Positions 1,549 to 17,122 of a DNA stretch of 36,550 bases are shown piece after piece. Position 1 is the stretch's first letter; every line of letters begins with the position of its first letter. A model generated the notes under the pieces. That model did not search any database. It was not told the origin of the DNA and saw only the letters and a program-made list of their open reading frames with translations. This DNA comes from an uncultured virus (IMG/VR IMGVR_UViG_3300021087_000006). Its lineage: Duplodnaviria > Heunggongvirae > Uroviricota > Caudoviricetes. The translations under genes and the position numbers were made by a program. The stretch lies in IMG/VR virus record IMGVR_UViG_3300021087_000006, one strand, 5' to 3'.

Positions 1549-2966
1549 AGGTTTACTTCGGTGGAGCGGAGAAGGGGTCTTACAGGTCGATACTATTATC
1601 AGCAGGAGTTACATCCTTTGGTATGAATTTGACACAGTTTGCTATACCCAAGCGTAAAGAATTAATACTCAGCGACAAGTTTGAGGGGGGTGACGTTCTT
1701 CTATACACCTCAGAAACCGATGAAGATATCCATAGGTTTGACTCGTTCGTGAGACAGCACGAGCAGGACTTGGACATTGTCATTGGCAGACCAGACTATG
1801 ACGGTGAATGGCTTGGGGCTAAGTACGTACCAATCTGGAATGACAAAGAGGACGTAGAGCGTCTGGCTTGGTTATGTCAGTCTTATGGTCGGGTGGCTTT
1901 AAGTGATAAAGGTATAACAGCAAAGACACTACCTCGCATCAACCAACTACAACAACGCTGGGGAACAAAGATGGTAGCCCTGACCTCTAAAGTGGACTCA
2001 ATCGAGGCAGGTAACTGGGACGCTGTGGTTGTGGGTTCTTGGACATCTGTAATACGTTATGGAGAAACACAGGTGTGGGATGGGCACGGGTTACGTAGGT
2101 ATCCCGCTCAACAAAAAGAAAGTGCTAGACGAAAGCATCGTGCTGATATTACTCGTATAGGTATTGACTATGCAGAAATAGAAGAGGAGTCGGTTACAGC
2201 TTTAGGTCTTCTAGCGATCAGATCGTGGCAGTTATGGTTGGGTGATTCTTCGGGCTATGACCTTCCAGATTCCTCTGTTGGGGGTAAGTCTGGGGACTCA
2301 GATAATACTGAGATAATTGATATCGACAGTAAAGACCATAGTGGAGATAATGAGGTTTCTAACCTACCTGATATTGCTATTGGTGCACCAAATAAGCGGC
2401 ACGAAAATGAACGAACATTGTTACCGGGTGTAGGTATAGAACGCATCACTTCTATGGGTGAGCAAATAGCCGATGAGCAGGGAGAATACACTGAAATCGC
2501 CCCAAACGTAGTTAACACACTAACCACTCAAGAGAGCATTTTGAGGCAGTGTGATAATTGCTATCTGGCATCACGATGTCCTGCATTCATGGAACATTCA
2601 GAATGTGGTTTTAAGTTACCTGTAGAGATAAGGACTAAGGATCAACTAAACGCTGCTATGAGGGTAATGATTGAGATGCAGGTAAGTAGGGTTTTGTTCT
2701 CTAGATTTGCTGAGGAGCTAGAAGGTCAAGGGTTAGACCCAGCACTATCTTCCGAGATGGATCGACTATTCAATCTCATAGACAAGATGAAAACTGTTAA
2801 TGAGTCTAGAGAGATGTTAAGTATATCTATGGAGACTAGAGGTAATAGTGGAGTTCTATCGAGATTGTTTGGAGCCAAAGCAGGAGAGACAGCTAGACAA
2901 TTACCCGGCGGTGGTTTTACTGAACAAGAGACAGACAACATAATTGATGGAACGGTGCTGGACTAG
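1545..2966 (+). CDS. large protein with a possible degenerate TGT/DpdA-like barrel and a C-terminal Cys cluster
   Basis: Start reassigned to ATG 1545 (ATGA overlap). KVYFGGAE start, SWTSVIRYG and CDNCYLASRC...C. The fold call is low confidence. Confidence 0.6.
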   Translation: MKVYFGGAEKGSYRSILLSAGVTSFGMNLTQFAIPKRKELILSDKFEGGDVLLYTSETDEDIHRFDSFVRQHEQDLDIVIGRPDYDGEWLGAKYVPIWNDKEDVERLAWLCQSYGRVALSDKGITAKTLPRINQLQQRWGTKMVALTSKVDSIEAGNWDAVVVGSWTSVIRYGETQVWDGHGLRRYPAQQKESARRKHRADITRIGIDYAEIEEESVTALGLLAIRSWQLWLGDSSGYDLPDSSVGGKSGDSDNTEIIDIDSKDHSGDNEVSNLPDIAIGAPNKRHENERTLLPGVGIERITSMGEQIADEQGEYTEIAPNVVNTLTTQESILRQCDNCYLASRCPAFMEHSECGFKLPVEIRTKDQLNAAMRVMIEMQVSRVLFSRFAEELEGQGLDPALSSEMDRLFNLIDKMKTVNESREMLSISMETRGNSGVLSRLFGAKAGETARQLPGGGFTEQETDNIIDGTVLD

Positions 2967-3109
2967 TGCTGTTGTTTTTGAATATACTCTTAGGAGTGCT
3001 GTTTGGGTGCATGGGTGGAACAGTATTTGTTTGGTATTGGGATTGGCTATTAGGCCAACATGATGATGATGGGACTTGGTGGGAAGATGGAAACGCCAGT
3101 ATGGATTAA
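2966..3109 (+). CDS. 47-aa membrane peptide (not in ORF track)
   Basis: GTG overlaps the previous stop; hydrophobic LLFLNILLGVLFGCMGGTVFVWYW followed by an acidic tail. Confidence 0.5.
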   Translation: MLLFLNILLGVLFGCMGGTVFVWYWDWLLGQHDDDGTWWEDGNASMD

Positions 3110-3473
3110 CACTGCACCATGCACTGGGAAAGCACAGTTTATGTGGTACCCACCTTGGGAGGCTAAAGACCCAAACCAGTGGTATGAAATGGGTAGGTTG
3201 GTGTGTGCCACCTGTGAGGTGTGGGAAGAATGCTTAGAGTATGGCAAAGATGAACGATGGGGTATGTGGGGCGGACTAACACCAAAGGAACGCAAGAAGT
3301 CATCTAAAACACATGGTAATTGGAGAGATTACAGGAGGGGCTGTGACTGTGGAGAATGCACAATCGCACATGTAATACAGATGTTAGAAGACCCAATCGA
3401 CATTGACGTGTTGCCAAACAAGGAAACTACTGAGTATGATGATCCGAGTGGACTACTATTTAACATTTTATGA
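3087..3473 (+). CDS. whiB: WhiB-family Fe-S transcription factor with an extra C-terminal HG..Y..GCxCxxC segment
   Basis: APC...CATCEVWEEC...WGMWGGLTPKER matches the WhiB four-Cys and G[VI]WGG signature. Confidence 0.9.
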   Translation: METPVWINTAPCTGKAQFMWYPPWEAKDPNQWYEMGRLVCATCEVWEECLEYGKDERWGMWGGLTPKERKKSSKTHGNWRDYRRGCDCGECTIAHVIQMLEDPIDIDVLPNKETTEYDDPSGLLFNIL

Positions 3474-3662: not shown

Positions 3663-4523
3663 ATGAGTTTGCTCGGTAGATATACCATCGGGTTTTTAAT
3701 AACCAGTCTTGTGTTTTTCCTGATAGCACTCATAGTGCAGGCAGAGGAACTAACACCACTACAAGACAACAATAGTTCTATGGTTGTTGCAACATTAGTG
3801 CCTTACACAGAAAATCGACTAGAAAGTCCATCACCTATTACAGCGTTAGACGCAGAAGAGGTTCTGATGTTCGTCAGGCACATGGACAACACTACTGACC
3901 GCCGTCAAGTAGCTACGACTACCACCATTTCCACAATTACGCCTTACAAGGTAACTAGTGAAGATGATGTGGAAGTGCCTTACCTAATTGATCAGCTTTA
4001 TGGGTATTACGAAAAAGGTAATCACATTAAAGCGTTACAGGAGCTACTAGGCATGGAGCAGGTAGATGGTGTGTATGGCAGGAACACTCGCAAAACACAC
4101 ATGGCATGGTTTGGCTCTAACACGGAAGCCTTACATCATTTCAATGACCGCAACCAGTGGTACATAGAAGCTATTGACCCTGAGCCTGCTGATGAATACT
4201 TAGGTCAGTACTGGTTGGACAGACCCACGCTGGGTGAACTCGTAGATGAGCACTTCAAACCTGAACACCGCTCGCTATTTTTGAAAATAGCCTTCTGTGA
4301 GAGTAGCGCTCAACCAGAAGACACTTTCAACGATGCTGTATCACCAGCGTTAGCCGTAGGTGCATTCCAGCACATGGCTCGCTACTGGCGCACTCGCTCT
4401 GAGGATGCCTCGATGAAGGGATGGGACATATTTGATATGAAGGCTCAGGTAAAAGTAGCCAGTCATCTTTTCTATACTTCTGGGATACACCATTGGAATC
4501 CTTCTCGTAAATGTTGGGGATAG
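3663..4523 (+). CDS. membrane-anchored or secreted lytic transglycosylase (SLT/Rpf-like) with a peptidoglycan-binding domain
   Basis: N-terminal TM/signal; IKALQELLG..VDGVYGRNT (PG-binding-1-like); IAFCESS...GAFQH catalytic-Glu motif; SD AAGGAAGG. Confidence 0.8.
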   Translation: MSLLGRYTIGFLITSLVFFLIALIVQAEELTPLQDNNSSMVVATLVPYTENRLESPSPITALDAEEVLMFVRHMDNTTDRRQVATTTTISTITPYKVTSEDDVEVPYLIDQLYGYYEKGNHIKALQELLGMEQVDGVYGRNTRKTHMAWFGSNTEALHHFNDRNQWYIEAIDPEPADEYLGQYWLDRPTLGELVDEHFKPEHRSLFLKIAFCESSAQPEDTFNDAVSPALAVGAFQHMARYWRTRSEDASMKGWDIFDMKAQVKVASHLFYTSGIHHWNPSRKCWG

Positions 4524-4538
4524 TGGTATTATTGATGT

Positions 4539-4937
4539 ATGCCCCAATCGCACGATAAGTTTGACCAATTCAAACCGTCAGAGTCAGATGATCTCGGAAT
4601 ACCTGAAGGTGTAATGGAGACTATGTCAGAGGGAGCTAAGATGATAGGTCAGGGAGCTAAAGCAGGTTTTCAGTCGGCTAGTCCATCCACCAAGATGGCA
4701 ACGGTAGCTACTGGTGTAGCTGGGGTGGTTGGGTCAGCTACAGGTCAATTACCACCTGATGTCGGTCTTGTTATAGCATCTAGCGCACCAGCACTTCCGT
4801 TTCTACGTCAGGGTGCAGAGATGCTAGGAAAATCGTCTGGATCTAGAAATAGTACCAGAGAACGTAAACCTATCAAGGAGGCACTTAACCCAGTGAAGGT
4901 TATAAAGGGGTTAATGGAGCCACCTAATAATCCGTAA
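4539..4937 (+). CDS. hypothetical protein (leaderless)
   Basis: TGG-TATTAT (4527-4532), 6 nt, ATG. Confidence 0.7.
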   Translation: MPQSHDKFDQFKPSESDDLGIPEGVMETMSEGAKMIGQGAKAGFQSASPSTKMATVATGVAGVVGSATGQLPPDVGLVIASSAPALPFLRQGAEMLGKSSGSRNSTRERKPIKEALNPVKVIKGLMEPPNNP

Positions 4938-5020
4938 TGTCAGCAGTCACTGTTGGTATTTCAGCGGTAATAATTGTTGCAACAATGATAGGATACTGGT
5001 TCTATCGGGAATACTTTTAA
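4937..5020 (+). CDS. 27-aa single-TM peptide (not in ORF track)
   Basis: TAATG overlap; MSAVTVGISAVIIVATMIGYWFYREYF. Confidence 0.4.
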   Translation: MSAVTVGISAVIIVATMIGYWFYREYF

Positions 5021-5731: not shown

Positions 5732-6559
5732 ATGAAAGCATTTATAACAACAGTAATTGTTGCAGGCATTATTACAGCAGTAGCAACGTCAGTGAACGCT
5801 CATCACGACATGATCTACACACCATGTGACACAGCTACCGGGCATGTCCACATGAGCTACGAAGAAATGGTTGCTCGTATCACAATTATGGAGCAAGACG
5901 GAACTATTCCAGCAGGCATGATTTCAAGGTATATAGAAGCAAGGGATGGCGGTAAAGGGAACGAAGATCCTCGTTTCGTTTGGGCTAGGAACTTGGAAGA
6001 AGGGCAGATACTTTCTTTAGGTAACTGGGCTAGTGGTCACCATCCTGAGCTTGAGCAACTTATGTTTAATTCGGGACTGGTAGCTGAGTGGCAACTCGAT
6101 GCCAACAAGCAGGTGAGACGCTTTAACGATCCGTACTGGATGCAAGCCAATCCGCTGTCACCATCGTTTACAGTGTGGCAGTCATTGTGCATGGCTAACT
6201 TAGGGTACTCAATTCCTTTGTTTGAAATAGATGAAGCTGGTCAGTGGGTGTCGAACATACCTAGTACAACCACAACGACTACTACGACTACCACGACCAC
6301 TGTTCCACCTACAACTACCGTTACCCCATTAAATAATCCGATTCAAAAGTCCGTACCTAAAATCACAGACGACTATGACTGGTTTGATGCTGAGTGGGAT
6401 GGCTACCCATTTGAACCCACAATAATCCTATTAGAAAGTCGATACCCCCCGAATACATCTAACAAGAACCACTTTAGGTTGTCGGTGGCGGTAGAATTTC
6501 TTAAACAAGGTGGCTTGCTTAAAGGGCTAGATAACACATGGAATGGGGTGACTGATTAA
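5732..6559 (+). CDS. secreted protein with a Thr-rich linker
   Basis: Signal peptide MKAFITTVIVAGIITAVATSVNA; poly-Thr run. Confidence 0.75.
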   Translation: MKAFITTVIVAGIITAVATSVNAHHDMIYTPCDTATGHVHMSYEEMVARITIMEQDGTIPAGMISRYIEARDGGKGNEDPRFVWARNLEEGQILSLGNWASGHHPELEQLMFNSGLVAEWQLDANKQVRRFNDPYWMQANPLSPSFTVWQSLCMANLGYSIPLFEIDEAGQWVSNIPSTTTTTTTTTTTTVPPTTTVTPLNNPIQKSVPKITDDYDWFDAEWDGYPFEPTIILLESRYPPNTSNKNHFRLSVAVEFLKQGGLLKGLDNTWNGVTD

Positions 6560-6933
6560 TGCACTATGCGAGGGTACAAGTCAAAGGTAAGATGTATTAT
6601 CTAGGTCGCTTTATATCGAAAGAAATAGCTAACGCCACCAGACAGGGCGCTCTCACCATTTTAGAAAAATTGAATGTTGAGGAAAAAAGTAATGATAAAA
6701 AAGAGTACGAAAAACATCGTAATGTCTCAAAGCCTAAATTAGAAGTACTAGAAAAGATGATAAACACAGGTGTATTTGATGATGATGTTGAGGTTCTGGA
6801 CTCATTGGGATTTGCAATAAATAGGCGTAGAGAAATGGTCATGAGAATGAGAACGATGACATCTTCAAAGATAAATTTGTCATCAAAAGAAATTGCAGAA
6901 ATATCTTCTAGTGGGGTTGGTGAACATATCTGA
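6559..6933 (+). CDS. AP2-like DNA-binding domain protein
   Basis: N-terminal YARVQVKGKMYYLGRFISKEIANA resembles the AP2 consensus (A.I..gk..yLG.F...e.A). Confidence 0.6.
   Translation: MHYARVQVKGKMYYLGRFISKEIANATRQGALTILEKLNVEEKSNDKKEYEKHRNVSKPKLEVLEKMINTGVFDDDVEVLDSLGFAINRRREMVMRMRTMTSSKINLSSKEIAEISSSGVGEHI
6712..6725 (+). repeat. AAACATCGTAATGT motif copy 1 (inside AP2-like gene)
   Basis: Exact match to seven other copies. Confidence 0.95.
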
Positions 6934-6987
6934 CGTTAGTAGTATTGCTAATGTGTCTACATAACGACAACTCGAAAGGGAGGACAC

Positions 6988-8052
6988 ATGAGTCAAGAAA
7001 CGTCAGAGTGGTTGAACCAGAATGTACTGGTTGGGTTCACATCCAAGCGTGGTAACGCTTGGCACTACAAAGAATCAGATCAGGGTGATGAGCCAAATCA
7101 CTATGAAATGAATATACCTGTTGAAGATGTAGAACGTAGACTGTTCTACTGGGATGCAGTTTCATTTCCTGTCTCTGTGACAGTACCAACAACATCGTAT
7201 GATCCACATATTGATGGACTAGATAAACTAACAGGTTCGCCATATAAGCATAAGCACGTTGCGGACTGGCAAGCCATTGGCAGGTCAGATACTAATGAAG
7301 TATTCAGAATGTTCAAGAAGACTTATGAAATACATCAATACAAGAATTGGTTGCTGGACACAGTTGCCAACCTAGTTGACGACAGCGACATTGCCATCGC
7401 CAGCGCAGGGCTACTCAAGAATGGTGGAGTAGCGTGGGTAAGCATCGAGCTACCCGAGAACCTCCAAACTCCGCAGGGGTTTGACATTCGACCACAGCTA
7501 CTGGCAACCACTAGTCATGATGGATCACTTGCTACTACGTTCAAACAAACAGCGACAGCAGTTGTTTGTGACAACACACTTGCATGGGGACTTCGTGATG
7601 GTGGACAGGTCAGTCGTGTCCGTCACACAACTAACTCTGGATTCAAACTTCAGAATGTTCGTGAAGCTCTTGACCTAGTCCACCTAGCTGGTGATGACGT
7701 TATGGCAGAGATCGAGAGACTCTCCAACATCAAGGTCAACGATTTTCAGTTTGATCGAATACTGAAGAATCTAATTCCAGTACCGTCACTTGACACCAGT
7801 AACCAAGCTGGCGTGACCAGAGCTACTAACAAGAAGTCAAAGATCCGTAACCTGTGGAACGAAGATGAAAGAGTGACTCAATGGAAGGGTACTGCACTCG
7901 GAGTCGTCCAAGCGTTCAACACTTACGACCATCACTACATGGGCAAGAAAGAAAAGCGTGTAGAGCGCAACATGAATAATGCTCTTACTGGTCGTACAGC
8001 TAAGGCAGACGACCTAGTACTTCAGACCGTCTTAGAGACAGTCGGTGCTTAG
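6988..8052 (+). CDS. DUF932 / LGT_TIGR03299-family phage/plasmid protein
   Basis: AGLLKNGGVAWV, LLATTSHDGS, VVCDNTL, RHT and WKGTALGVVQAFNTYDHH; strong SD GGGAGG. Confidence 0.9.
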   Translation: MSQETSEWLNQNVLVGFTSKRGNAWHYKESDQGDEPNHYEMNIPVEDVERRLFYWDAVSFPVSVTVPTTSYDPHIDGLDKLTGSPYKHKHVADWQAIGRSDTNEVFRMFKKTYEIHQYKNWLLDTVANLVDDSDIAIASAGLLKNGGVAWVSIELPENLQTPQGFDIRPQLLATTSHDGSLATTFKQTATAVVCDNTLAWGLRDGGQVSRVRHTTNSGFKLQNVREALDLVHLAGDDVMAEIERLSNIKVNDFQFDRILKNLIPVPSLDTSNQAGVTRATNKKSKIRNLWNEDERVTQWKGTALGVVQAFNTYDHHYMGKKEKRVERNMNNALTGRTAKADDLVLQTVLETVGA

Positions 8053-8071
8053 GCGTTGATGGTAGCGATTT

Positions 8072-8105
8072 GGATAGGAGGGTTTGTGGTTATACCTTCC
8101 TATCC
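8072..8105 (+). terminator. hairpin after the DUF932 gene
   Basis: 12-bp stem GGATAGGAGGGT / ACCTTCCTATCC, followed by a second small hairpin GGTGTC/GACACC (8111-8125). Confidence 0.6.
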
Positions 8106-8135
8106 TTGTCGGTGTCCTCGACACCATACAATTAA

Positions 8136-8279
8136 ATGGTAAGTAAAAATATAAGAGGAGTCACTAGGTGTCAAGAATGTTTGTGGTACATAGGCAACAG
8201 AATCTTGAAAAAACATCGTAATGTCTGCCCGAATTGTGAAAGCGAGATAGAAGATGACATCGTCATACGAGAAAAGTAA
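8136..8279 (+). CDS. 47-aa CxxC..CxxC zinc-ribbon protein (not in ORF track)
   Basis: MVSKNIRGVTRCQECLW...KKHRNVCPNCESE. Confidence 0.55.
   Translation: MVSKNIRGVTRCQECLWYIGNRILKKHRNVCPNCESEIEDDIVIREK
8211..8224 (+). repeat. AAACATCGTAATGT motif copy 2
   Basis: Exact match. Confidence 0.95.
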
Positions 8280-8610
8280 AGACTACCGAAGCACAGTAGG
8301 TAGTGACATGGAAAAGATACATAGGCGGTTGGATGATATTGCCCAAGCCATAGGTTACCTAAGTCAAGTTTTAGAGGTAGCGATAAAAGAGTGGGAGAGG
8401 CGCAAAGAGTATGAGCATAGCAGAAGTACTTATGGTCTCTATGATCCACAGGAGTACCGCAGGTCGTATGACGAGTTTTCAGGTCGCTATGACAATCCAG
8501 TTCCACGATACGAACCATACGATCCAAAACAAGATCCTAGCAGAGTGGTAGTAACTGATGAGAGTATGGCATCAGGATTCAAAGAAGGCTCGGAAGAAGC
8601 TACTGATTAA
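8254..8610 (+). CDS. hypothetical protein
   Basis: ORF; start uncertain. Confidence 0.6.
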   Translation: MTSSYEKSKDYRSTVGSDMEKIHRRLDDIAQAIGYLSQVLEVAIKEWERRKEYEHSRSTYGLYDPQEYRRSYDEFSGRYDNPVPRYEPYDPKQDPSRVVVTDESMASGFKEGSEEATD

Positions 8611-8619
8611 TTAAATAAC

Positions 8620-8649
8620 TTGCAAAAGTTCTAAACATAGATATATAGT
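8620..8649 (+). promoter_or_regulatory. sigma70/SigA-like promoter for the small-gene operon
   Basis: TTGCAA (8620-8625), 18 nt, TATAGT (8644-8649); AT-rich upstream; SD at 8671. Confidence 0.6.
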
Positions 8650-8684
8650 ACTAAGTACACACATAGCAATAAGGAAGGTAACAC

Positions 8685-9032
8685 ATGAGTACAATAATCA
8701 CCATCTACCATCAGGGTAACTCGACACTTTTTAATGACTTCGATCCTGATACAGCAACACTCAAGCTGGCATACTCTTATCTTGATGACTCTTGGGAAGA
8801 AGATGACTGGATAGATCCTCCAATGTTCTTGGAGGGAGTGTTTCGTGACAACAACGCTGGTGCAGGAGGTCATGAACTAAATGTACAACATTGCACACGC
8901 TCGCTAAGTGATGGTGATGTGGTAGGACTACCCGATGGATTTGGATACTGGACAGTATGTGCTATGGGTTGGTCAGAAGTAACTGTTGACGAAGTTGAGC
9001 AGGCTCTCAACAGAAACATCGTAATGTCATGA
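8685..9032 (+). CDS. hypothetical protein (RSLSxGDVV motif, YodL-like)
   Basis: SD AAGGAAGG; TRSLSDGDVVGL. Confidence 0.75.
   Translation: MSTIITIYHQGNSTLFNDFDPDTATLKLAYSYLDDSWEEDDWIDPPMFLEGVFRDNNAGAGGHELNVQHCTRSLSDGDVVGLPDGFGYWTVCAMGWSEVTVDEVEQALNRNIVMS
9014..9027 (+). repeat. AAACATCGTAATGT motif copy 3 (one base before ATG 9029)
   Basis: Exact match. Confidence 0.95.
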
Positions 9033-9193
9033 GTAAAGTAAAAGAGCAACAACGTATCTGCAAGGGAGTGGAGAGGTGGAATCCCGATTGTACGACTGTT
9101 CTCAGTAGGTACAATCCCAACGACATCTGTCAGGCGTGTATTCGTAAGATACCTTCCATACATCTACCTGAGTTCTTGGAGATGAAGCTGTGA
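9029..9193 (+). CDS. 54-aa four-Cys protein (not in ORF track)
   Basis: ATGA/GTGA overlaps at both ends; RICK...CTTVLSRYN..ICQAC. Confidence 0.7.
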   Translation: MSKVKEQQRICKGVERWNPDCTTVLSRYNPNDICQACIRKIPSIHLPEFLEMKL

Positions 9194-9486
9194 GTCGAGG
9201 ATACCACAGACAACAGAAAGGTCTTCGGAGAAATCAAAAGCAACAGACTAAGCAAGGTCGCAGGATGGAAACCGAACAGCAAGAACGGAGACAGGAACAA
9301 ATCAAGTGGTGGAATCTATCACCTAGAGAGAAGAACGAATACTGGGCATGGGCAGAATTACGCAAGCAGAGAGCGCATCGCCTATTCAATCTTCACGATG
9401 GCGGTGAGACTACAGAACTCCGCTACTATCCAATGCCCGAAGAAGACTTAGAGAAAGAACTCAAACACATAAGGGGAGATGAATGA
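9190..9486 (+). CDS. hypothetical Gln/Arg-rich protein
   Basis: Coupled ORF. Confidence 0.65.
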   Translation: MSRGYHRQQKGLRRNQKQQTKQGRRMETEQQERRQEQIKWWNLSPREKNEYWAWAELRKQRAHRLFNLHDGGETTELRYYPMPEEDLEKELKHIRGDE

Positions 9487-9620
9487 TGAAGCGATACTAC
9501 TCAGGTGATAAAACTACTGAGTACCTAGATGAATTTGCTGAGGGCGAAGCTGACAACGAGGCGATGCTCTTTCTACTGAAAGAAGGGAGTGACCATCAGA
9601 AGTTTTTTGCAGATGAATAA
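9483..9620 (+). CDS. 45-aa acidic protein (not in ORF track)
   Basis: SD AGGGGAG; ATGA overlap. Confidence 0.55.
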   Translation: MMKRYYSGDKTTEYLDEFAEGEADNEAMLFLLKEGSDHQKFFADE

Positions 9621-9634
9621 AAACATCGTAATGT
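9621..9634 (+). repeat. AAACATCGTAATGT motif copy 4 (directly after a stop codon)
   Basis: Exact match. Confidence 0.95.
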
Positions 9635-9666
9635 ATTAACAACCAATAGGAAGGTAACAACAACAC

Positions 9667-9945
9667 ATGAGTAACGAAGAAGATGAAGTAATGATGCATG
9701 AGCCACCAAAGCCATACGCACCATCCATGTTCAGTCACACCGACTTCCATGCAGTCTGGGAAGAAGGTGGAGCGAACCACATCGAGTCCTACATAGAGGA
9801 GGAGGAGATGAAGATAGAGGAACTCAAAGATTTCATTCTTGAGATGGAAGTGTACGAGAGTCTGATGAAAGAGTGGGAAGAATACCAGTCAGAAGCAGAG
9901 TGGACTATTTTGGAAGCTCGACCAAATGGAGAAGTAACACAATGA
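9667..9945 (+). CDS. acidic hypothetical protein
   Basis: SD AGGAAGG. Confidence 0.7.
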   Translation: MSNEEDEVMMHEPPKPYAPSMFSHTDFHAVWEEGGANHIESYIEEEEMKIEELKDFILEMEVYESLMKEWEEYQSEAEWTILEARPNGEVTQ

Positions 9946-10226
9946 CTGAGGAGATGAAGCTGGCAATAAAACTACAACCAGTAATAGCACTACTTAACTT
10001 TGTTAAATCCTGTACTGAATATCATCCTGACGAAACCCCCGAATGGTTCTTGGAGGAAAACGACATTTCATACGAGGATTTGGATGCGACTGAGCATTAC
10101 GAAGCACTCGATAATGCTCACGATTCCTTCAGAGATGCATACGGAAGTGACGCTGATACTGACATCGTGCGCTCTATCTGTGAAGGTGCAAGACAACTAC
10201 TCAAAGACTTGGAGGTGGCAGTCTAA
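9942..10226 (+). CDS. acidic hypothetical protein
   Basis: Start reassigned to ATG 9942 (ATGA overlap, GGAG SD). Confidence 0.7.
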   Translation: MTEEMKLAIKLQPVIALLNFVKSCTEYHPDETPEWFLEENDISYEDLDATEHYEALDNAHDSFRDAYGSDADTDIVRSICEGARQLLKDLEVAV

Positions 10227-10438
10227 TGGCACACACATTTATGGTACAGATAACAGTTGAAGATAACCATACGCCTATTAGTGAAGGTGAAACCAAAACT
10301 AGATGGATTGAGAAAAAGGTTATGGATGTTCTCAACGAGAAACATGAATGGTCGTTTACTCAGTACGTGACTGTTCCAGAAGTTAAGAGGTTGATTGCGG
10401 ATCAGGTGAACAAGATAGTAAGCGTAAGGAGACAATAA
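10226..10438 (+). CDS. hypothetical protein
   Basis: SD GGAGG; TAATG overlap. Confidence 0.7.
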   Translation: MAHTFMVQITVEDNHTPISEGETKTRWIEKKVMDVLNEKHEWSFTQYVTVPEVKRLIADQVNKIVSVRRQ

Positions 10439-11001
10439 TGCCTAATGAATGTGCGAATGAAGTATCCGTGTACGGCTCAGTAGCGGAGCTAAAGAGATTC
10501 AAGGAAGCCATCACCAGCAAAAAGGATGACGGTATTGAATATGAGATATTCCGCAACCTGTTACCACTTGATTTCGATACAAGTGATAATCCTAGACAAC
10601 TAGCCATTGATGTATGGGGTAGTAAGTGGGGTGACTATGACACCGATGTTAGTGACATAACAGACGAGTATGGGTGGGAGGTATCATCCATATTTATGGA
10701 GTACCTATCTGCATGGAGTCCATGTGACTACACCAAGATTAGTGAGATGTTTCCCGACTTGACATTCCTAATGGTCTACTCCGAACATGGTTGGGGTTTC
10801 ATGGGTGTGACGGTCTATCAAAAGGGTGAAGAAGTGTTTAGTGATTTCGTTGATAGTACTAATGACCGTTATCCGCAGTTAAGGGAAGACTTACCTGAGG
10901 ATACTGATTGGCAGGCTCAGGAAGAATTTGATGAAGCTGAGATGGAATTAAGACATCAGTTCGATATTGAGGCTCTGAAGTTTGTAGGACTACTGACATG
11001 A
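10438..11001 (+). CDS. DUF1281 / YubB ferredoxin-like domain protein
   Basis: MPNECANEV...WGSKWG...SAWSP...FPDL.F...YSE.G..FMG pattern. Confidence 0.8.
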   Translation: MPNECANEVSVYGSVAELKRFKEAITSKKDDGIEYEIFRNLLPLDFDTSDNPRQLAIDVWGSKWGDYDTDVSDITDEYGWEVSSIFMEYLSAWSPCDYTKISEMFPDLTFLMVYSEHGWGFMGVTVYQKGEEVFSDFVDSTNDRYPQLREDLPEDTDWQAQEEFDEAEMELRHQFDIEALKFVGLLT

Positions 11002-11237
11002 ACCTAAAACACGCAAGACTAGAAAATGGAACTATTGAGTTCGCACTCGAAATCAATTTGCCCGATGATCGAGTACTTGTTGTCAACAGTTACGATGGGA
11101 AGTTGAACATGCACACTACCGACAACGAAGATACCTCTAGTGTGGAACTCACATTTGAGGAGTGGGCAAACTGGGTAGTCAAGAGAAAAAACATCGTAAT
11201 GTCATTTCTTGGAGAAGGTAGTCAGGGTAATGACTGA
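10998..11237 (+). CDS. hypothetical protein
   Basis: ATGA overlap. Confidence 0.65.
   Translation: MNLKHARLENGTIEFALEINLPDDRVLVVNSYDGKLNMHTTDNEDTSSVELTFEEWANWVVKRKNIVMSFLGEGSQGND
11189..11202 (+). repeat. AAACATCGTAATGT motif copy 5
   Basis: Exact match. Confidence 0.95.
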
Positions 11238-11553
11238 ACTTACACGCATGGTTTTGCTTGACAGTAAAAACAATGAAGACAATAGCACGTTGAGAATGCA
11301 CGTTATGTTTTTAGGCGATGATGACTTTGCCGATATGTGGGTGAATGATCCTGATGTGCTTGACAGGTTGCATGGTTTTGACAGCACGTTCGCCTACGAG
11401 TTTGATTTTGGTGAGTATCAGACCATTGAGGGCATGGTGGGTGAACCTGTTTATGACGACATGGAAATTACCGCAATATTGGAAGTTATGACTCTTGCGG
11501 AATACGGATGGGATTTCACCGAAGATATTAAACAATGGAAGGAAAACACATGA
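11230..11553 (+). CDS. acidic hypothetical protein
   Basis: Start reassigned to ATG 11230. Confidence 0.65.
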   Translation: MTELTRMVLLDSKNNEDNSTLRMHVMFLGDDDFADMWVNDPDVLDRLHGFDSTFAYEFDFGEYQTIEGMVGEPVYDDMEITAILEVMTLAEYGWDFTEDIKQWKENT

Positions 11554-11732
11554 GTAATAATATGGAATATGAGTTTCTTTGGGATGAAGCAACAGGGGAT
11601 GTAAATGCCATGTTCTTCAACGAGGTCATGGAATATGTGGGTAGACACATGAGGCAACACTTACCAGCATTCGATGATGTTCAAGAGACTTTGGTGGCAG
11701 AACTAGTGACACGTATGCAAGAGGAAGGCTAA
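11550..11732 (+). CDS. small hypothetical protein
   Basis: SD AAGGA and ATGA overlap at 11550. Confidence 0.65.
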   Translation: MSNNMEYEFLWDEATGDVNAMFFNEVMEYVGRHMRQHLPAFDDVQETLVAELVTRMQEEG

Positions 11733-11866
11733 TGCCTAGAACAATAACAGTAATGATAAAAGATGACTTCGATCCCACTCTTGGGGCAGATGTCATAGAG
11801 GCAGTCGAAGATTTTGAGCAACTACTTCAAGTGGAGTTCGAGGATAAGGAGAGGACTAATGCCTGA
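11732..11866 (+). CDS. 44-aa acidic protein (not in ORF track)
   Basis: TAATG overlap, GAGGAAGG SD; fills the gap exactly. Confidence 0.55.
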   Translation: MPRTITVMIKDDFDPTLGADVIEAVEDFEQLLQVEFEDKERTNA

Positions 11867-12386
11867 AGTAGAACAAGACAGATTACAAAACATCATTGAG
11901 TTGATTAACAACCCAAAGACACAAAACGTGAATAAGAACGAGATGATTTTACATCTTGAAAGCCTTGCCAACACAAGGAGCAAGTCTCATCATGTCGAAG
12001 CGTACCGGAGCATTATTGCCAAGTCCGAGATATGGGAAATATGGGGTTGCGATCATTGTGACGTTAAGTATCCATATTATGAGATTATTGCAGAAGAACA
12101 TGCGAAAGGACTTCGTGAAGCAGTTGGGATGTTCACATTCGTAGAGACAGGTAACTGGAGTCCAGCGAAATGCACGGACTACGCAAACATAATTAGTGAA
12201 CATTCTTACCTGTGCTGGAGTTGTGCAGAGGACTATCTCATTGATAATGGCGTTGAGCCGAACTATGAGCGTGAACCGATTATCGAAGCGTTGTTAGAGC
12301 CATTGACAGAAAACAGTCTAGGCATCTACACCAAGTTCATGACCGAATACATGGAAGAAAAGGAGAGGGCTAATGCCGACTTATGA
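11859..12386 (+). CDS. hypothetical protein with CxxC pairs
   Basis: Start reassigned to 11859 (SD AAGGAGAGG); CDHC and CWSC. Confidence 0.7.
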   Translation: MPEVEQDRLQNIIELINNPKTQNVNKNEMILHLESLANTRSKSHHVEAYRSIIAKSEIWEIWGCDHCDVKYPYYEIIAEEHAKGLREAVGMFTFVETGNWSPAKCTDYANIISEHSYLCWSCAEDYLIDNGVEPNYEREPIIEALLEPLTENSLGIYTKFMTEYMEEKERANADL

Positions 12387-12714
12387 AGATAGCAATTTAC
12401 AACAAAGCAATTCGCAACAACGCATGTTTGAATATCAAAAATATATACCAGAAGCAAGTGGTCATTACTTCACTGAACATTTACCTGATGGTTGGGATAC
12501 ATGGGAACATGAAGAACTAGAGAAGTGGTGTGAGGATCATGTTTGGCAACCATTTGAATACGATGATGTTCATTGGGTGTTTGAACAAGCAGACAATCTT
12601 GCAATATCTATCCACAGGTGTGTGGAAGAAGCAACCAAACCGTTGCATGAGGAGATAGCACGCCTCAACGATTCAATTCGTGGACTAGCGGAACTAGCGA
12701 AAAGAGGGGGATAA
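12373..12714 (+). CDS. hypothetical protein
   Basis: SD AAGGAGAGG. Confidence 0.7.
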   Translation: MPTYEDSNLQQSNSQQRMFEYQKYIPEASGHYFTEHLPDGWDTWEHEELEKWCEDHVWQPFEYDDVHWVFEQADNLAISIHRCVEEATKPLHEEIARLNDSIRGLAELAKRGG

Positions 12715-12848
12715 TGAAAACCGTCATATTCTGTGATTGGTGTCAAACTAACGATCACCCCTATTGGGATCATGTTCAAGAAATAGAGCATGAGGGTAGG
12801 TTAAAGAACCTTTGCTATGACTGTTTCTTAGATAGAGAGGATGACTAA
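12714..12848 (+). CDS. 44-aa CxxC..CxxC protein (not in ORF track)
   Basis: TAATG overlaps at both ends; CDWC...CYDC. Confidence 0.65.
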   Translation: MKTVIFCDWCQTNDHPYWDHVQEIEHEGRLKNLCYDCFLDREDD

Positions 12849-13012
12849 TGTTTCAAAACATCGTAATGTCCCTACTTGGATTTACTAATCCACTATGGGA
12901 GTACATAATTGCACCAGTAGCGCTGTGGGGTTTTGGTCTTGCAGTTGGATGGGGACTGGCAAGACACGAAATAAGAGAAATGGAAGAATTAATATGGGGG
13001 GAAGATGACTGA
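12848..13012 (+). CDS. 54-aa membrane protein (not in ORF track)
   Basis: MFQNIVMSLLG...IIAPVALWGFGLAVGWGLA. Confidence 0.6.
   Translation: MFQNIVMSLLGFTNPLWEYIIAPVALWGFGLAVGWGLARHEIREMEELIWGEDD
12856..12869 (+). repeat. AAACATCGTAATGT motif copy 6
   Basis: Exact match. Confidence 0.95.
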
Positions 13013-13463
13013 ACAATACGAACAACAAACTCTATTTGATGTCTCGAAGTATGAGAAATTGGATGGATCAGGAAAGGTAACTGAACAACCAACAGAAGAC
13101 GTAGTTGCTCAGTCTCTCATGCAGACAGACTACAACCAGTACTACTCTCGTATGGTTCATCTGAATGAAGTTGACTACCTGATTTCTCACAACATTGACT
13201 ACGAGGAAGGTGACCACGTAGAGATTAGCGTTCACATGAATTTCTTTGATTCACAAGATGCTTACGACAACTACCAACTCTCGGATGAGTTCGGTGGCGA
13301 CCACATGATTAGTCATATCCGATTAGACAAAGAGAGTATAGCTGGCACTTTGGAGATAGAACAGTTGGAAGAAATCATTAAATGGAAGAAGCAAGTTGAC
13401 TTGGAGTGGGAGATTAAACGTCTTACTCAAGAACTAAACAAAGTAAAGGAAGGGGAGTACTAA
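13005..13463 (+). CDS. acidic hypothetical protein with N-terminal QQTLF
   Basis: Coupled ORF. Confidence 0.7.
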   Translation: MTEQYEQQTLFDVSKYEKLDGSGKVTEQPTEDVVAQSLMQTDYNQYYSRMVHLNEVDYLISHNIDYEEGDHVEISVHMNFFDSQDAYDNYQLSDEFGGDHMISHIRLDKESIAGTLEIEQLEEIIKWKKQVDLEWEIKRLTQELNKVKEGEY

Positions 13464-13657
13464 TGGGACACGCAGACTCACAAGCATCAAGACCAGCACC
13501 ACCAACAAGAAAAGAATTGATGGAGCAAAGAGATAAAGATGCCGTTAGACTTAGACAGCGATGGGCAGAAGCCAAACTAGAAAAAGAGATACGAATACAG
13601 GAGACATTAAAATATGCGAATAGAAGAATTAGCGAGCGAAGTAGCAAAACTAGATAG
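13463..13657 (+). CDS. small basic helical protein
   Basis: SD AGGGGAG; TAATG overlap. Confidence 0.55.
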   Translation: MGHADSQASRPAPPTRKELMEQRDKDAVRLRQRWAEAKLEKEIRIQETLKYANRRISERSSKTR

Positions 13658-13973
13658 AGCAAGTAAAACAGCTAAAGCCAAACTAGACCAAGTTAAAGAA
13701 AAGATGATGGCTCAGATGGATGAGCATGACATCACCAAGTTCACACTTGATAGTGGTAGGGCAACGATTACTCTCGTAGATGCCGAGAGGTTAGACGTTG
13801 ATTATGAAACCCTAAATGAACTCGATTCAGAAATCGGTTCAAAAGTCCGTGCTGAAAAAGTGGACATCAAATTGTTCAAAGCTGGATTGGAAGCAGGACT
13901 CATTTCTACTGACTTGGCAAAAAAGGTTTCAAGTTTTACTCCATACCGTCAGATAAAAGTGACTCGTAAGTAA
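13614..13973 (+). CDS. coiled-coil phage protein (Gp157/Gam-like architecture)
   Basis: N-terminal helix AKLDQVKEKMMAQMDEHDITKF followed by beta strands; SD AGGAG. Confidence 0.65.
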   Translation: MRIEELASEVAKLDRASKTAKAKLDQVKEKMMAQMDEHDITKFTLDSGRATITLVDAERLDVDYETLNELDSEIGSKVRAEKVDIKLFKAGLEAGLISTDLAKKVSSFTPYRQIKVTRK

Positions 13974-13983
13974 GCTGTACTAA

Positions 13984-13997
13984 AAACATCGTAATGT
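13984..13997 (+). repeat. AAACATCGTAATGT motif copy 7 (intergenic)
   Basis: Exact match. Confidence 0.95.
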
Positions 13998-14094
13998 ATT
14001 GAGCTTTAAGACTCGCTTTATGGGTGTATATCTATATATATGCGGAAACCTATATTTATTATTATTTTGATTTTGTGAATTTTTCACAAGTGAA

Positions 14095-14110
14095 TCGTAC
14101 AAGTGTTCGA
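14095..14110. promoter_or_regulatory. putative actinobacterial LexA (SOS) box
   Basis: TCGTAC-AAGT-GTTCGA, one mismatch from TCGAAC-N4-GTTCGA, in a 500-bp intergenic region. Confidence 0.5.
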
Positions 14111-14130
14111 TTCTCTGAGCTGGGAATTTT

Positions 14131-14392
14131 CCTTGATTTTTCGGTATTTCCTCGTAGAAGCCTTCTAAGACGTTTCCAGTACTAATTTGGTGTAGTTATA
14201 CCTGAATGGGTATTGATGAGTTTAGAGATACCTGTACGCCTCTCTATCGGGAGATTACAAGTACTAGCTGGTTGCTGATAGCAATATAAAAAACATCGTA
14301 ATGTCATCGAAAAACCTTGATTTTTCGGGGTTTTATTAACACTCAAATAACCTGAAAAAACCTCGATTTTCCTTGATAAATCAGGGTTTTTT
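14131..14392. repeat. CCTTGATTTTTCGG direct repeats and associated inverted repeats
   Basis: 14131-14144 equals 14315-14328; hairpins CGAAAAA/TTTTTCG (14308-14327) and AAAAAACC..GATTT/AAATC..GGTTTTTT (14355-14392). Confidence 0.7.
14291..14304 (+). repeat. AAACATCGTAATGT motif copy 8 (intergenic)
   Basis: Exact match. Confidence 0.95.
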
Positions 14393-14473
14393 GGTAGCGA
14401 ATAGCAATAAATTCCTTATAGACTGAGGGTACACACAACAGGGTAAGAAAAGCCCTAAAAGGAGATACACATT

Positions 14474-14938
14474 ATGAGTATCAAATTAAACAATATGGGT
14501 ACGCCAGTTATTTGGCTAGCTCGTGAAGGTTGGGGAGGGGAGCGACCATTCATCGGATTGGTTGTTGCCTACCTCTTCAGTTCTCATCACAATTATGTGG
14601 TGTGGAATATGTCATCTCAAGACGGTGAGTCTTGGGATTGTTCACATGGTGATTACGTTCATGAATTGTCAGAAGCTGTTGACATATTCAATGACCGTGC
14701 GAAATTCATTTGTGAAACAGCGCAATGTATGAAAGCAAAATTCAAGCGTGAAGAACGTGAGCTTGCTGAGTGGTTGGCGGATCAGGAAAAGCGCCAAGCT
14801 CAAGACGGTGGCATCATCCATCTGAGTCCCGAAGGAAATTTCTGTGACGTGTGCGGTGTCGAAATGACATCAGGGAACACATCAATGATGCTTACCGCTA
14901 CGTGCGGAAATTGTAATTCAGTAGAGAGGGGTTACTAA
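14474..14938 (+). CDS. hypothetical protein with a C-terminal CxxC..CxxC zinc ribbon
   Basis: SD AAGGAG; CDVC...CGNC. Confidence 0.75.
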   Translation: MSIKLNNMGTPVIWLAREGWGGERPFIGLVVAYLFSSHHNYVVWNMSSQDGESWDCSHGDYVHELSEAVDIFNDRAKFICETAQCMKAKFKREERELAEWLADQEKRQAQDGGIIHLSPEGNFCDVCGVEMTSGNTSMMLTATCGNCNSVERGY

Positions 14939-15198: not shown

Positions 15199-15557
15199 TG
15201 ACTGAGGTATTAGCACCAGCAGTATACGAAGCGTGGAAATTGTTTTCTTCATCGAAGTCAGTTCGGGAGATCGCCAAGCGATTTCCTGAGCTGGACATTT
15301 TTCCATCTTCATGTATCCACGATATGTACGTCATTGATCGGGACGTGATCTTCGTTCAGATTCTCTCGAAGGATGGAATGAGCTACAAAGAGTATGCGTA
15401 CGTAATTCCAATGAATTGCTCTCGTACTCATGGAGTACTCTTCGATCTTCGCAAAGCAATGTTCGAGACTTGCTCATTGGGCAAGGCTCTGCAAATACTC
15501 AAAGCCAATTTTGAATATGAGTTGATTGGTGAGTTCACATTAGGAGCGCAAGTATGA
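15198..15557 (+). CDS. hypothetical protein
   Basis: TAATG overlap, SD GGGAGG. Confidence 0.7.
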   Translation: MTEVLAPAVYEAWKLFSSSKSVREIAKRFPELDIFPSSCIHDMYVIDRDVIFVQILSKDGMSYKEYAYVIPMNCSRTHGVLFDLRKAMFETCSLGKALQILKANFEYELIGEFTLGAQV

Positions 15558-17122
15558 ACAACAAATTAGATGATCTGCTCGCAGGTCTTACTGAACAAAC
15601 TGAAGGAGCTACTGAGGTTCTGCCCAAGCGAGAAATCGTTCGGGTAGAACCTGAAGGTTCTCCATTTGAGTTGTATGAATTTCAGAATGAGGCTCTCGAT
15701 CATGCTCTTGAAAAAAAGAGAAGTTTGTGTGGTCTCGAAATGGGATTGGGCAAGACTCCGATCATGGCACATGCATCGTTGGCATGTGTCAAAGCTGGTG
15801 TGTCACCAATACTCGTAGTTGTGCCACCATCACTTCGACTCAACACTCGAATTGAGTTCGAGAGATTCTGTCCCGAGCTATCTACCGAGATTCTTCTTGG
15901 TCGTAAGCCTCATGAGATTCCAGATGTCGATGTCCTAATCATGGGTGACACATCTGTGAACGATTGGGCAGATGCTTTGGTCGAACATAAAATCCAATCC
16001 ATAATTTGTGATGAAGCTCATCGCTACAAGAATCCAAAAGCTCAGAGGTCGCAAGGTCTCTTGAGAATTTCTAGATCATTACCTGATGATGGTCTACGAC
16101 TCTTGTGTAGTGGCACGTTCACAACTAATGGTCGACCACAGGAACTAGCTGTGCCATTGCAAATCATTTCAAGAACTAGTGATCTTATGAATGGAAAGGT
16201 CTACGAAGATCCGATAGACAATTTCCAGCACACTAAAGATTTCTTGAATCGCTACTCGCCTCCCGATGGAAAAGGGTTTGGTGGTCGAGCGCCAGCAGTA
16301 CAACTACTACCTGAGCTACATGAGAGACTGGGCAATTACGCTCACTACCATCGCAAGCTACGGTCTGAAGTTACTGACCTACCTAACAAAGCTCGTTCGA
16401 TAGTTTTCATCGAGCCTGATAAAAAGGTCGAGAAGAAATACATCGAAGCTGAAGAAGATTTACGAAGTTACCTAAAGGGTGAAGGTCGTAATCGTTCTCA
16501 GATTGAGAGAGCATTTCGAGCAGAGACTTTGGTGAAGTTAGGTGTACTACGGAAGCTCTGTGGTCTTATGAAAGTTGAGTCAACATGCAAGTACGCACAA
16601 GACTTGATGGACATGGGCGAGAAAGTTTTCATCGTCACTTACTACAAAGACGAAGCCAACATGATTGCTGAGAAATTAAATGCAGTAAAAATAGTTGGTG
16701 GTATGTCAGATCATGCCAAGCAACAATCTGTCGAGAGATTCTCAAAAGATGTGGATGCTCTTGTGGGTAATCAAGTTAGTGCTGGTGTTGGGTTCACATT
16801 GCATGGAGCAGAGAAGATGGATGATGGTTCATTCTCTGATGCAAAGTGTCGCCATGTCATAACTCATAGTTTGGCGTGGCACTCATCTGATCTCCAGCAA
16901 TGCGAGGATCGTATTCACAGAATTGGTCAGAACCAAGAAGTTATTTCGAGCATCGAGATAGCTGGCATGACTGATCCAAACAGACAAAGTATTGACATAC
17001 ACGTTTGGGGATTGATCGAAGCCAAGTACGACCATACGGCAATGATACTTGATGGCAGAGAAGCTGATCTCGTAGACATTGACGATATTCATAATCACCT
17101 AATAGATATTTACTCAAACTAA
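15554..17122 (+). CDS. SNF2-family (SF2) helicase/ATPase, HARP-like
   Basis: LYEFQ, EMGLGKT, VVVPPSL, DEAH, SGT, AGVGFTL and QCEDRIHRIGQ. Confidence 0.92.
   Translation: MNNKLDDLLAGLTEQTEGATEVLPKREIVRVEPEGSPFELYEFQNEALDHALEKKRSLCGLEMGLGKTPIMAHASLACVKAGVSPILVVVPPSLRLNTRIEFERFCPELSTEILLGRKPHEIPDVDVLIMGDTSVNDWADALVEHKIQSIICDEAHRYKNPKAQRSQGLLRISRSLPDDGLRLLCSGTFTTNGRPQELAVPLQIISRTSDLMNGKVYEDPIDNFQHTKDFLNRYSPPDGKGFGGRAPAVQLLPELHERLGNYAHYHRKLRSEVTDLPNKARSIVFIEPDKKVEKKYIEAEEDLRSYLKGEGRNRSQIERAFRAETLVKLGVLRKLCGLMKVESTCKYAQDLMDMGEKVFIVTYYKDEANMIAEKLNAVKIVGGMSDHAKQQSVERFSKDVDALVGNQVSAGVGFTLHGAEKMDDGSFSDAKCRHVITHSLAWHSSDLQQCEDRIHRIGQNQEVISSIEIAGMTDPNRQSIDIHVWGLIEAKYDHTAMILDGREADLVDIDDIHNHLIDIYSN

Follow-up and report, generated by a model that had tools for sequence, protein, structure and literature searches.

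The DNA considered here, IMG/VR record IMGVR_UViG_3300021087_000006, is a stretch of 36,550 nucleotides (nt) from an uncultured virus of the Caudoviricetes, and we refer to the whole of it as the window. Its genes lie nearly all on the plus strand, and between a DUF932 gene and a gene for a SNF2-type helicase stands an array of small open reading frames (ORFs; Table 1). Spread over this part of the window are eight exact copies of a 14-nt word, AAACATCGTAATGT, all in the same orientation. An initial annotation of the DNA had described these copies, and our pattern search agrees with it on their number, place and direction: no copy was found on the minus strand of the window in a search allowing up to two mismatches, and 100 dinucleotide shuffles gave a mean of 0.28 and a maximum of 2 matches at the same tolerance. 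All eight copies fall inside 7.6 of the 36.5 kb and none lies elsewhere in the window. The description of the word as confined to 7.6 kb therefore holds for the window and does not extend to the genome, which must be at least 98.5 kb long because a protein identical to the product of ORF 6559–6933 is encoded on a contig of 98,550 nt. We take the window to be about one third of an uncultured marine phage of about 100 kb with actinophage-like genes.

Alignment of the copies puts the conserved unit at about 16 nt, slightly longer than the 14-base-pair (bp) core of the initial annotation, which is itself invariant. Two adenines precede the core (A at −2 and at −1, each in 7/8 copies) and it is followed by C (6/8) or A (2/8), beyond which the flanks of the eight copies are mutually unrelated. 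With only some 16 nt fixed, the pattern points to selection on the word itself, and not to a cassette that was recently copied. A scan at up to four mismatches returned further matches that were weak only, the nearest being the 3′ half copy CGTAATGTCA at 4933, which has a terminator-like hairpin (4949–4968) downstream of it; the two-mismatch look-alike AAACAGCGCAATGT is probably functionless. The inverted symmetry of the word (ACAT/ATGT), also pointed out in the initial annotation, is real and amounts to a trivial hairpin, whose 4-bp stem contributes only −1.4 to −1.6 kcal/mol when folded as DNA. Within the collection of papers searched, the exact string was found in no phage paper and turned up only in three unrelated ones. 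Mini-ORFs beginning at the word's own ATG (2, 2, 2, 6, 9, 12, 12 and 48 codons) were considered as an explanation and dropped, as they have no ribosome site.

Table 1. Copies of the word and other features of the window (distances to start codons are counted from the end of the 14-nt core; aa, amino acids)
Feature	Position	Strand	Context	Downstream
Copy 1 (core 6712–6725)	6710–6726	+	Inside the 'AP2-like' ORF 6559–6933, read as KHRNV	In-frame ATG 6757 at 31 nt, an internal Met
Copy 2 (core 8211–8224)	8209–8225	+	Inside the 47-aa CxxC...CxxC ORF 8136–8279, read as KHRNV	ATG of gene 8254–8610 at 29 nt
Copy 3 (core 9014–9027)	9012–9028	+	Encodes the C terminus of gene 8685–9032, NIVMS and stop	ATG 9029 at 1 nt
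Copy 4 (core 9621–9634)	9619–9635	+	Intergenic, abuts the stop codon 9618–9620	ATG 9667 with ribosome site AGGAAGG at 32 nt
Copy 5 (core 11189–11202)	11187–11203	+	3′ end of gene 10998–11237, read as NIVMS	ATG 11230 with ribosome site GGAGAAGG at 27 nt
Copy 6 (core 12856–12869)	12854–12870	+	Codons 4–8 of ORF 12848–13012 (MFQNIVMS...)	ATG 12895 at 25 nt, a doubtful start; next clear gene begins at 13005
Copy 7 (core 13984–13997)	13982–13998	+	Start of the AT-rich, mostly non-coding stretch 13974–14473	GTG 14024 at 26 nt, a doubtful start
Copy 8 (core 14291–14304)	14289–14305	+	Non-coding	Next gene starts at 14474, 170 nt away
Structured stretch	14303–14398	+	About 95 nt directly after copy 8; long imperfect hairpin, then T6	
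Two-mismatch look-alike AAACAGCGCAATGT	14715–14728	+	Inside gene 14474–14938	
3′ half copy CGTAATGTCA	4933–4942	+	Supplies the stop codon (TAA) of gene 4539–4937	
TGCTAATGT	6946–6954	+	TAATGT hexamer with a TGn extension (TGC)	33 nt before the DUF932 start at 6988
Sigma-70-type promoter-like site, TTGCAA-18-TATAGT	8620–8649	+		35 nt before ATG 8685
Module absent from locus L119	9014–9935	+	About 920 nt: copy 3, three small genes, copy 4 and most of gene 9667–9945	
DpdA-like gene	1530–2966		478 aa; match to PHROG 'queuine tRNA-ribosyltransferase' (E 1.6e-34)	
WhiB gene	3060–3473		Family match confirmed	
DUF932 gene	6988–8052			
Small-ORF array	Between DUF932 and helicase		About 25 ORFs, very few of them named by Pfam or PHROG	
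SNF2-type helicase	15554–17122			
Class II ribonucleotide reductase and tail-fibre genes			Also in the window	

Several copies lie inside genes, in the two frames that the initial annotation had given (KHRNV twice, NIVMS three times); those at 9621, 13984 and 14291 are outside long ORFs. Homologues of the proteins concerned indicate how the word is accommodated. In the product of ORF 6559–6933, KHRNV forms residues 52–56, within a segment (41–56) predicted to be disordered (predicted local distance difference test, pLDDT, below 50), and it is kept in eight close homologues at 94–100% identity. The sole distant homologue (49%) has a four-residue gap and KSVRV in place of KHRNV, and this protein, which lacks the word, also has Leu in place of the in-frame Met that lies 31 nt past copy 1. 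Two homologues of gene 10998–11237 (89% and 84%) carry NIVMSFLGEGSQ unchanged, with variable N-terminal parts. For gene 8685–9032 there are four homologues, of which the two at 99% and 78% body identity end in NIVMS and the two at 81% and 72% in EMVSQ and EMVTQ, respectively. The 78% (NIVMS) and 72% (EMVTQ) homologues are closest to one another, sharing 84% identity and a 13-residue insertion. Since these two differ in their endings, whether the word is present is independent of the upstream gene and goes with what lies downstream. Across the relatives the word is kept down to about 78% protein identity. Read from the sequences, these comparisons support the earlier proposal that the word is conserved at the nucleic-acid level and is imposed on the proteins that happen to contain it: KHRNV falls in a predicted disordered linker that is gapped in the 49% homologue, and NIVMS alternates with EMVSQ or EMVTQ.

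The 3′ end of the word, TAATGT, fits the pattern TANNNT in all eight copies, with A at position 2 and T at position 6. TANNNT is the −10 pattern of actinobacterial promoters. In six of the eight copies a start codon of an ORF of at least 25 aa follows 25–32 nt past the core (31, 29, 32, 27, 25 and 26 nt for copies 1, 2, 4, 5, 6 and 7). The background frequency of such a spacing is 0.169–0.180 and the probability of six or more hits in eight is about 5e-4 to 7e-4, for a spacing window that was picked post hoc, after seeing the data. Three of these positions (8254, 9667 and 11230) are clear gene starts with purine-rich ribosome sites. We consider that the word is probably a promoter, specific to this lineage and lacking a −35 element, that heads gene modules. 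TAATGT would act as the −10 element, and the eight invariant bases upstream of it, together with the A-tract (about −13 to −22), would give specificity in place of a −35. Host RNA polymerase could read the word with the help of a phage-supplied factor, or through an unusual sigma-factor contact, and transcripts would begin a few bases downstream, with leaders of about 20–25 nt that contain the ribosome site. Under this scheme the copies would head one small-gene module after another in the part of the non-structural region that lies between DUF932 and the replication genes. Both the initiation of RNA polymerase at the word and the nature of the factor that reads it are what we infer from this arrangement. 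The length of the invariant part suggests a reader beyond the housekeeping sigma factor, be it a phage factor on the host polymerase, a sigma factor of the phage, or a protein bound to an operator that overlaps the −10.

Two other promoter-like sites were seen nearby. The TAATGT hexamer of TGCTAATGT, ahead of the DUF932 gene, looks from its letters like part of an extended −10 promoter, and both hexamers of the sigma-70-type site at 8620–8649 are kept in the related locus L119 described below (TTGCAA / TAAAGT). A start context, AGGAAGGTAAC...ACACATGAGTA, is common to several genes of the region (8672–8691 and 9648–9670, also 6984 and 11546). It recalls start-associated sequences of some mycobacteriophages.

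Besides the post hoc choice of the spacing window, several observations weigh against a promoter. No −35 element is evident in the copies: the best match to TTGACA at a spacing of 16–19 nt averages 3.1 of 6 positions, and random positions average 2.75. The TGn that would mark an extended −10 is not present, its place being taken by TCG in 8/8 copies, and fourteen invariant bases exceed what a housekeeping sigma factor needs. For copies 6 and 7 the only starts at the favoured distance are doubtful and lack a ribosome site. Copy 3 ends a single nucleotide before ATG 9029 and, given the geometry of sigma-type initiation, is unable to serve the gene that begins there. After copy 8 come a hairpin and a T-run, and the next gene is 170 nt away. 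Among the window ORFs there is no match to a sigma factor, RNA polymerase, helix-turn-helix or activator family (Pfam at E ≤ 0.5, NCBIfam and PHROGs). Contigs from four RNA runs, which cover the region sparsely, showed no transcript 5′ end and bridge several copies (8169–8319, 9006–9156, 9512–9655, 9515–9688, 13982–14132 and 14182–14463); they fit read-through or carry-over of DNA and are uninformative on where transcripts start. Finally, the promoter reading of the words found in relatives, set out below, rests on consensus and not on experiment. By eye, we also saw no separate downstream −10 at a fixed offset across the copies, of the kind present in the relatives L252 and L263.

The orientation of the copies with transcription, and their position some 25–32 nt before start codons in six of the eight, would also suit a signal in the messenger RNA: a site in the leader at which a nuclease processes the transcript or a regulator controls translation of each downstream gene. 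The RNA-run contigs that cross copies mean that the word could occur in RNA. However, seven 74-nt contexts of the word fold no better than their shuffles (z −0.9 to +0.4) and the window has no Rfam match, which makes an RNA structure common to the copies unlikely. In copies 3 and 6 the word falls on or past the start codon that it would have to regulate, and the corresponding words of relatives are framed by −35-like and −10-like hexamers, which make sense for DNA and not for RNA. We regard a role at the RNA level as improbable.

The DNA around copies 7 and 8 has features of its own. The 130 nt around copy 8 (14271–14400) fold with a z of −3.9, and the structured stretch directly after it may serve as a leader or terminator or encode a small RNA. 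It lies within an AT-rich stretch of about 500 nt (13974–14473), between the small-gene array and gene 14474, which contains CCTTGATTTTTCGG repeats (14131 and 14315) and the inverted repeat TGTGAATTTTTCACA, and which may likewise harbour a leader or a small RNA, or be origin-like.

A metagenome scan yielded four loci, L118–L121, of which only L119 (DNA 88% identical overall to the window) is close enough to carry the word; it was not found in L118, L120 and L121, all of high GC content. L119 has copy 2. At the position of copy 3 it has AGAGAGATGGTGTCACAATGA where the window has AGAAACATCGTAATGTCATGA, and homology resumes at CACAATGAC, the start of the window gene at 9942, so that L119 lacks a module of about 920 nt (Table 1). 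The left edge of this module lies exactly at copy 3. At its right edge there is no copy of the word, and the junction in L119 has none either, so that the indel does not look like an exchange between two copies. On the sequence evidence the word appears to behave as the 5′ end of a module, and if the promoter travels with the genes that it heads, the copies would mark the left edges of modules gained or lost between relatives.

The same comparison bears on the idea that the word is a site for a DNA transaction: a strand-specific nick, a hot spot for cassette exchange by recombination, or a signal for DNA entry. Its one-stranded occurrence every 0.3–1.7 kb would suit such a role, as would the indel with its left edge at a copy, and repeated promoter cassettes act as recombination substrates in T4-type phages (PMC2839356). 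Against this stand the L119 junction and right edge just described, and a second variant, in which one RNA-run contig joins 9195 to 9466, lies away from any copy. Furthermore, the window's ORFs gave no match to an integrase or recombinase family, and the word has no attC-like fold. We think this role highly improbable. The initial annotation had proposed to test whether gene gains and losses map to the word; one indel does so, with its left edge at a copy, and this does not demonstrate cassette recombination motif by motif.

Some further features of this region and of the related loci were noted in passing. The variant 9195–9466 skips 270 nt (90 codons) of ORF 9190–9486 and is a strain variant, an in-frame deletion. 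The block 8050–8320, which runs from the DUF932 stop codon to the end of the 47-aa zinc-ribbon ORF and includes copy 2, shows about 99% identity to L119, and its flanking genes 80–88%. Within it lies a strong hairpin (8070–8105; z −5.1 for 8040–8140), which may represent a terminator or a conserved non-coding element of another kind. On the minus strand of L118 (6800–12100) there are six or seven repeated intergenic cassettes, each a GC-rich hairpin followed by AGAGAGAGAGAAC and an ATG, which we read as a unit of terminator and translation start before each small gene.

Searches for the word beyond these close relatives gave isolated matches only. In IMG/VR the 14-mer occurs in at least 117 loci, each with a single copy, and a complete scan with the 15-mer found 85 single-copy loci, none of them with a second copy at up to one mismatch. 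In GTDB genomes a 17-mer gave 44 single chance matches and no cluster, none of the matches listed being named as an actinobacterium. Scans of IMG/VR with the DUF932 protein or the helicase as single queries returned nothing, nor did scans of IMG/VR and GTDB with an alignment of gene 8685. A profile built from five DUF932 proteins retrieved 21 IMG/VR loci. Five of these (L251–L255) share the gene order of the window, from ORF 290 through the DpdA-like and WhiB genes to DUF932; L251–L253 also carry the helicase, and L252 sits on a contig of 100,418 nt. At up to two mismatches the word is present in 0/21 of these loci.

Several lineages have, in the same region, an invariant one-strand word of their own. 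In L252 (DUF932 identity 76%) this is AATCTCCCTGCACTG, in five copies, with TTGCTA or TTGACA directly before it and TAGTAT or TAAGGT 4 nt past it in 5/5 (background 0.012, for copies that are not independent, since the repeated unit is longer than AATCTCCCTGCACTG), so that the word forms an invariant spacer in a −35/18/−10 frame. As in the window, the first copy precedes the DUF932 gene, by 64 nt, and the last stands just before the helicase. In L263 (48%), CACTTGGTGACAA has six copies, one of them with one mismatch, and TANNNT follows 14–15 nt later in 6/6 (background 0.037). L259, L260 and L268 (51–52%) have 6, 11 and 5 copies of TGCTATAATA, a textbook extended −10, often with GTTGCAAAGC upstream and with a ribosome site and ATG 17–41 nt later. 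L261 and L264 (47–48%) have a palindrome, ATGTTCCACGTGGAACAT, in 5 and 9 copies, with TANNNT at 12–16 nt in 3/5 and 3/9, respectively. This perfect palindrome resembles the parS consensus of bacteria; it is possibly an operator on promoters, or an array of ParB-type sites in a phage. Two further observations concern these loci. In L252 (9937–18113), and likewise in L251, five cassettes of about 60–100 nt carry AATCTCCCTGCACTG between −35-like and −10-like hexamers, and three of the five L252 cassettes then have a G7..C7 hairpin, a layout nearer than that of the window's word to the stem-loop promoter cassettes discussed at the end. A different palindrome, TGATATATCA, occurs 8 times in L259 and 7 times in L268, alongside the TGCTATAATA promoters, and is operator-like.

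The palindromes of L261 and L264, which precede TANNNT in 3/5 and 3/9 copies and so resemble an operator placed on a promoter, lend something to the view that the window's word is itself an operator or roadblock, bound in one orientation by a phage DNA-binding repressor or timing regulator that blocks or tunes transcription in the manner of the mycobacteriophage stoperators. The word is asymmetric, some 14–16 bp long, one-directional, and placed at gene junctions or forced into coding sequence. It is also partly palindromic (ACAT..ATGT), and an invariant run of fourteen bases is more in keeping with a sequence-specific protein than with a sigma factor. Stoperators are likewise numerous, asymmetric and mostly in one orientation relative to transcription (PMC6550527; PMC9283540). 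However, the copies are limited to 7.6 of the 36.5 kb and stoperators are genome-wide, and the 60 ORFs of the window include no match to a repressor, integrase or recombinase family (Pfam, PHROGs), nor a helix-turn-helix match. A pure roadblock would leave unexplained both the spacing of 25–32 nt to start codons and the TANNNT built into the word, and the equivalent words of syntenic relatives sit in promoter frames. A combined version, in which the operator overlaps the −10 of each promoter, has also to be considered. As a whole we judge the operator explanation unlikely.

Returning to the promoter, the relatives suggest that the words turn over from lineage to lineage while the architecture stays constant: small-gene modules, running from DUF932 to the helicase, each headed by a word. 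The part of the promoter taken up by the invariant word would then differ: in L263 it would be the −35 region, in L252 the spacer, in L259 and L260 the extended −10, and in the window the −10 with the proximal spacer. It is conceivable, and we put it forward with low confidence, that each lineage of a family of aquatic, actinophage-like phages of about 100 kb has a private word, covering its own part of the promoter and read by a co-evolving phage specificity factor on the host RNA polymerase. Candidate factors would be dark proteins such as the WhiB-like protein or the beta-beta-alpha, 'AP2-like' ORF that bears copy 1. The latter has no Pfam match; its beta-beta-alpha N terminus comes from a weak model (mean pLDDT 60.8), and its profile compared with PDB sequences gave nothing meaningful (best E 0.2). 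Among the proteins named in the initial annotation as possible readers, the WhiB assignment stood; the zinc ribbon falls below the Pfam cut-off, the AP2-like ORF is as just described, and no ParB family match was found.

If such pairs exist they would be natural orthogonal promoter–factor pairs in phages of uncultured marine Actinobacteria, and the turnover of words bears on how phage early programmes are insulated from one another and from the host. We consider this turnover across the aquatic phages of about 100 kb to be the more interesting lead. For the window itself, a promoter would make the word a marker of transcription units in an abundant uncultured marine phage, and a means of tracing its reading factor.

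The remaining evidence on the phage and its genes can be given briefly. Protein matches in GenBank phages all fall below 60% identity, the best of them coming from phages of Rhodococcus, Gordonia, Mycobacterium, Streptomyces and Arthrobacter, and no GenBank phage matches the window at the DNA level (megablast, blastn). The stretch 6500–14800 is present, at 74% or more of sampled 31-letter words, in 14 marine DNA runs, and 20 rows from 17 studies contain it at least partly, three of the DNA rows being possibly the source sample. The window has no tRNA genes. Comparison of 24 related loci showed the DpdA-like protein to be conserved in 17 of them, at 54–76% identity; going by its family name, it is a candidate enzyme for 7-deazaguanine modification of DNA. 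Enzymes of the DpdA type modify a large share of G's. The word as a target of such modification was dropped by inference, as a 14-nt site misfits the enzyme family. ORF 3663–4523 resembles a lytic transglycosylase or peptidoglycan-binding protein, and ORF 5732–6559 has no usable Atlas match. A low-complexity coding stretch of the CAACAAC type in the latter (6261–6301) draws many unrelated RNA-run contigs with loose ends, and the peak in RNA-run depth there is an artefact. The 159-aa ORF 21343–21822 has weak matches, both below the cut-off, to rifampin ADP-ribosyltransferase (Pfam E 1.2e-4, NCBIfam E 5.6e-4), from which an ADP-ribosyltransferase fold is possible. ORF 34745–35122 has a PASTA domain, adjoins the tail-fibre genes and contains tandem 12-nt repeats (TTCCCACCACAC / TTCCCACCGT units) at 34982–35090.

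How does the word compare with known systems? The initial annotation had drawn analogies to stoperators and to the oriented nick sites of T5 and phiKMV, which are physical single-strand interruptions in virion DNA, and had proposed an undescribed phage system for silencing, nicking, DNA entry or cassette recombination. These analogies fit poorly with copies that are not window-wide and with 60 ORFs that give no repressor or integrase match, and the new system is not supported: the TANNNT hexamer, the spacing to start codons and the promoter-framed words of relatives point to a phage-specific promoter. The stoperators of cluster A mycobacteriophages, of the type bound by L5 gp71, do resemble the word in being short (13-bp), asymmetric, one-orientation sites at gene junctions in phages of Actinobacteria. 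However, stoperators are genome-wide sites of temperate phages with a known repressor (PMC6550527; PMC9283540), whereas the word forms a 7.6-kb cluster in a window where neither a repressor nor an integrase was found, and it has a −10-like hexamer at a promoter-like distance from start codons. The attC sites of integrons are imperfect inverted repeats that form a hairpin and are used by an integrase, whereas the word offers a 4-bp stem of −1.4 kcal/mol and the window has no integrase match.

Promoters that depend little on a −35 are closer. Those read by gp36, the phage sigma factor of phiEco32, have one element around −10, with the consensus AATGTA centred at −11.5 (PMC12276001), and the word likewise contains AATGT followed by A (two copies) or C (six). 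However, the host phylum differs, no sigma-like gene is present in the window, and the word extends 8–10 bases further upstream, and the resemblance in letters may be chance. The extended −10 (TGn-TATAAT, or TGCTATAATA in L259, L260 and L268) shares with the word its independence of a −35, conserved bases directly upstream of the hexamer, exact repetition on one strand and the same genomic region. It differs in having TGn where the word has TCG, and the invariant upstream part of the word is much longer, reaching to about −22. At extended −10 promoters, transcription begins 6–8 nt downstream.

The closest parallel lies with the T4-type phages, in which repeated early promoters are found upstream of ORFans, in plastic regions and at the borders of indels. 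Among them, the PeSL (promoter-early stem-loop) cassettes of RB49 and phi1 consist of an AT-rich tract, full sigma-70 −35 and −10 elements and a stable stem-loop terminator (Arbiol et al. 2010, PMC2839356). Like them, the word is a repeated, co-oriented element just upstream of small genes of unknown function and is linked to indels. It is fixed over only about 16 nt, it has neither a −35 nor a common stem-loop (only copy 8 has strong structure after it), and the sole indel seen here does not look like a copy-by-copy exchange. The word thus works most like the PeSL cassettes but falls outside that family, as it has neither their −35 nor their stem-loop; it would belong to a known category, that of repeated phage promoters, with a new sequence.

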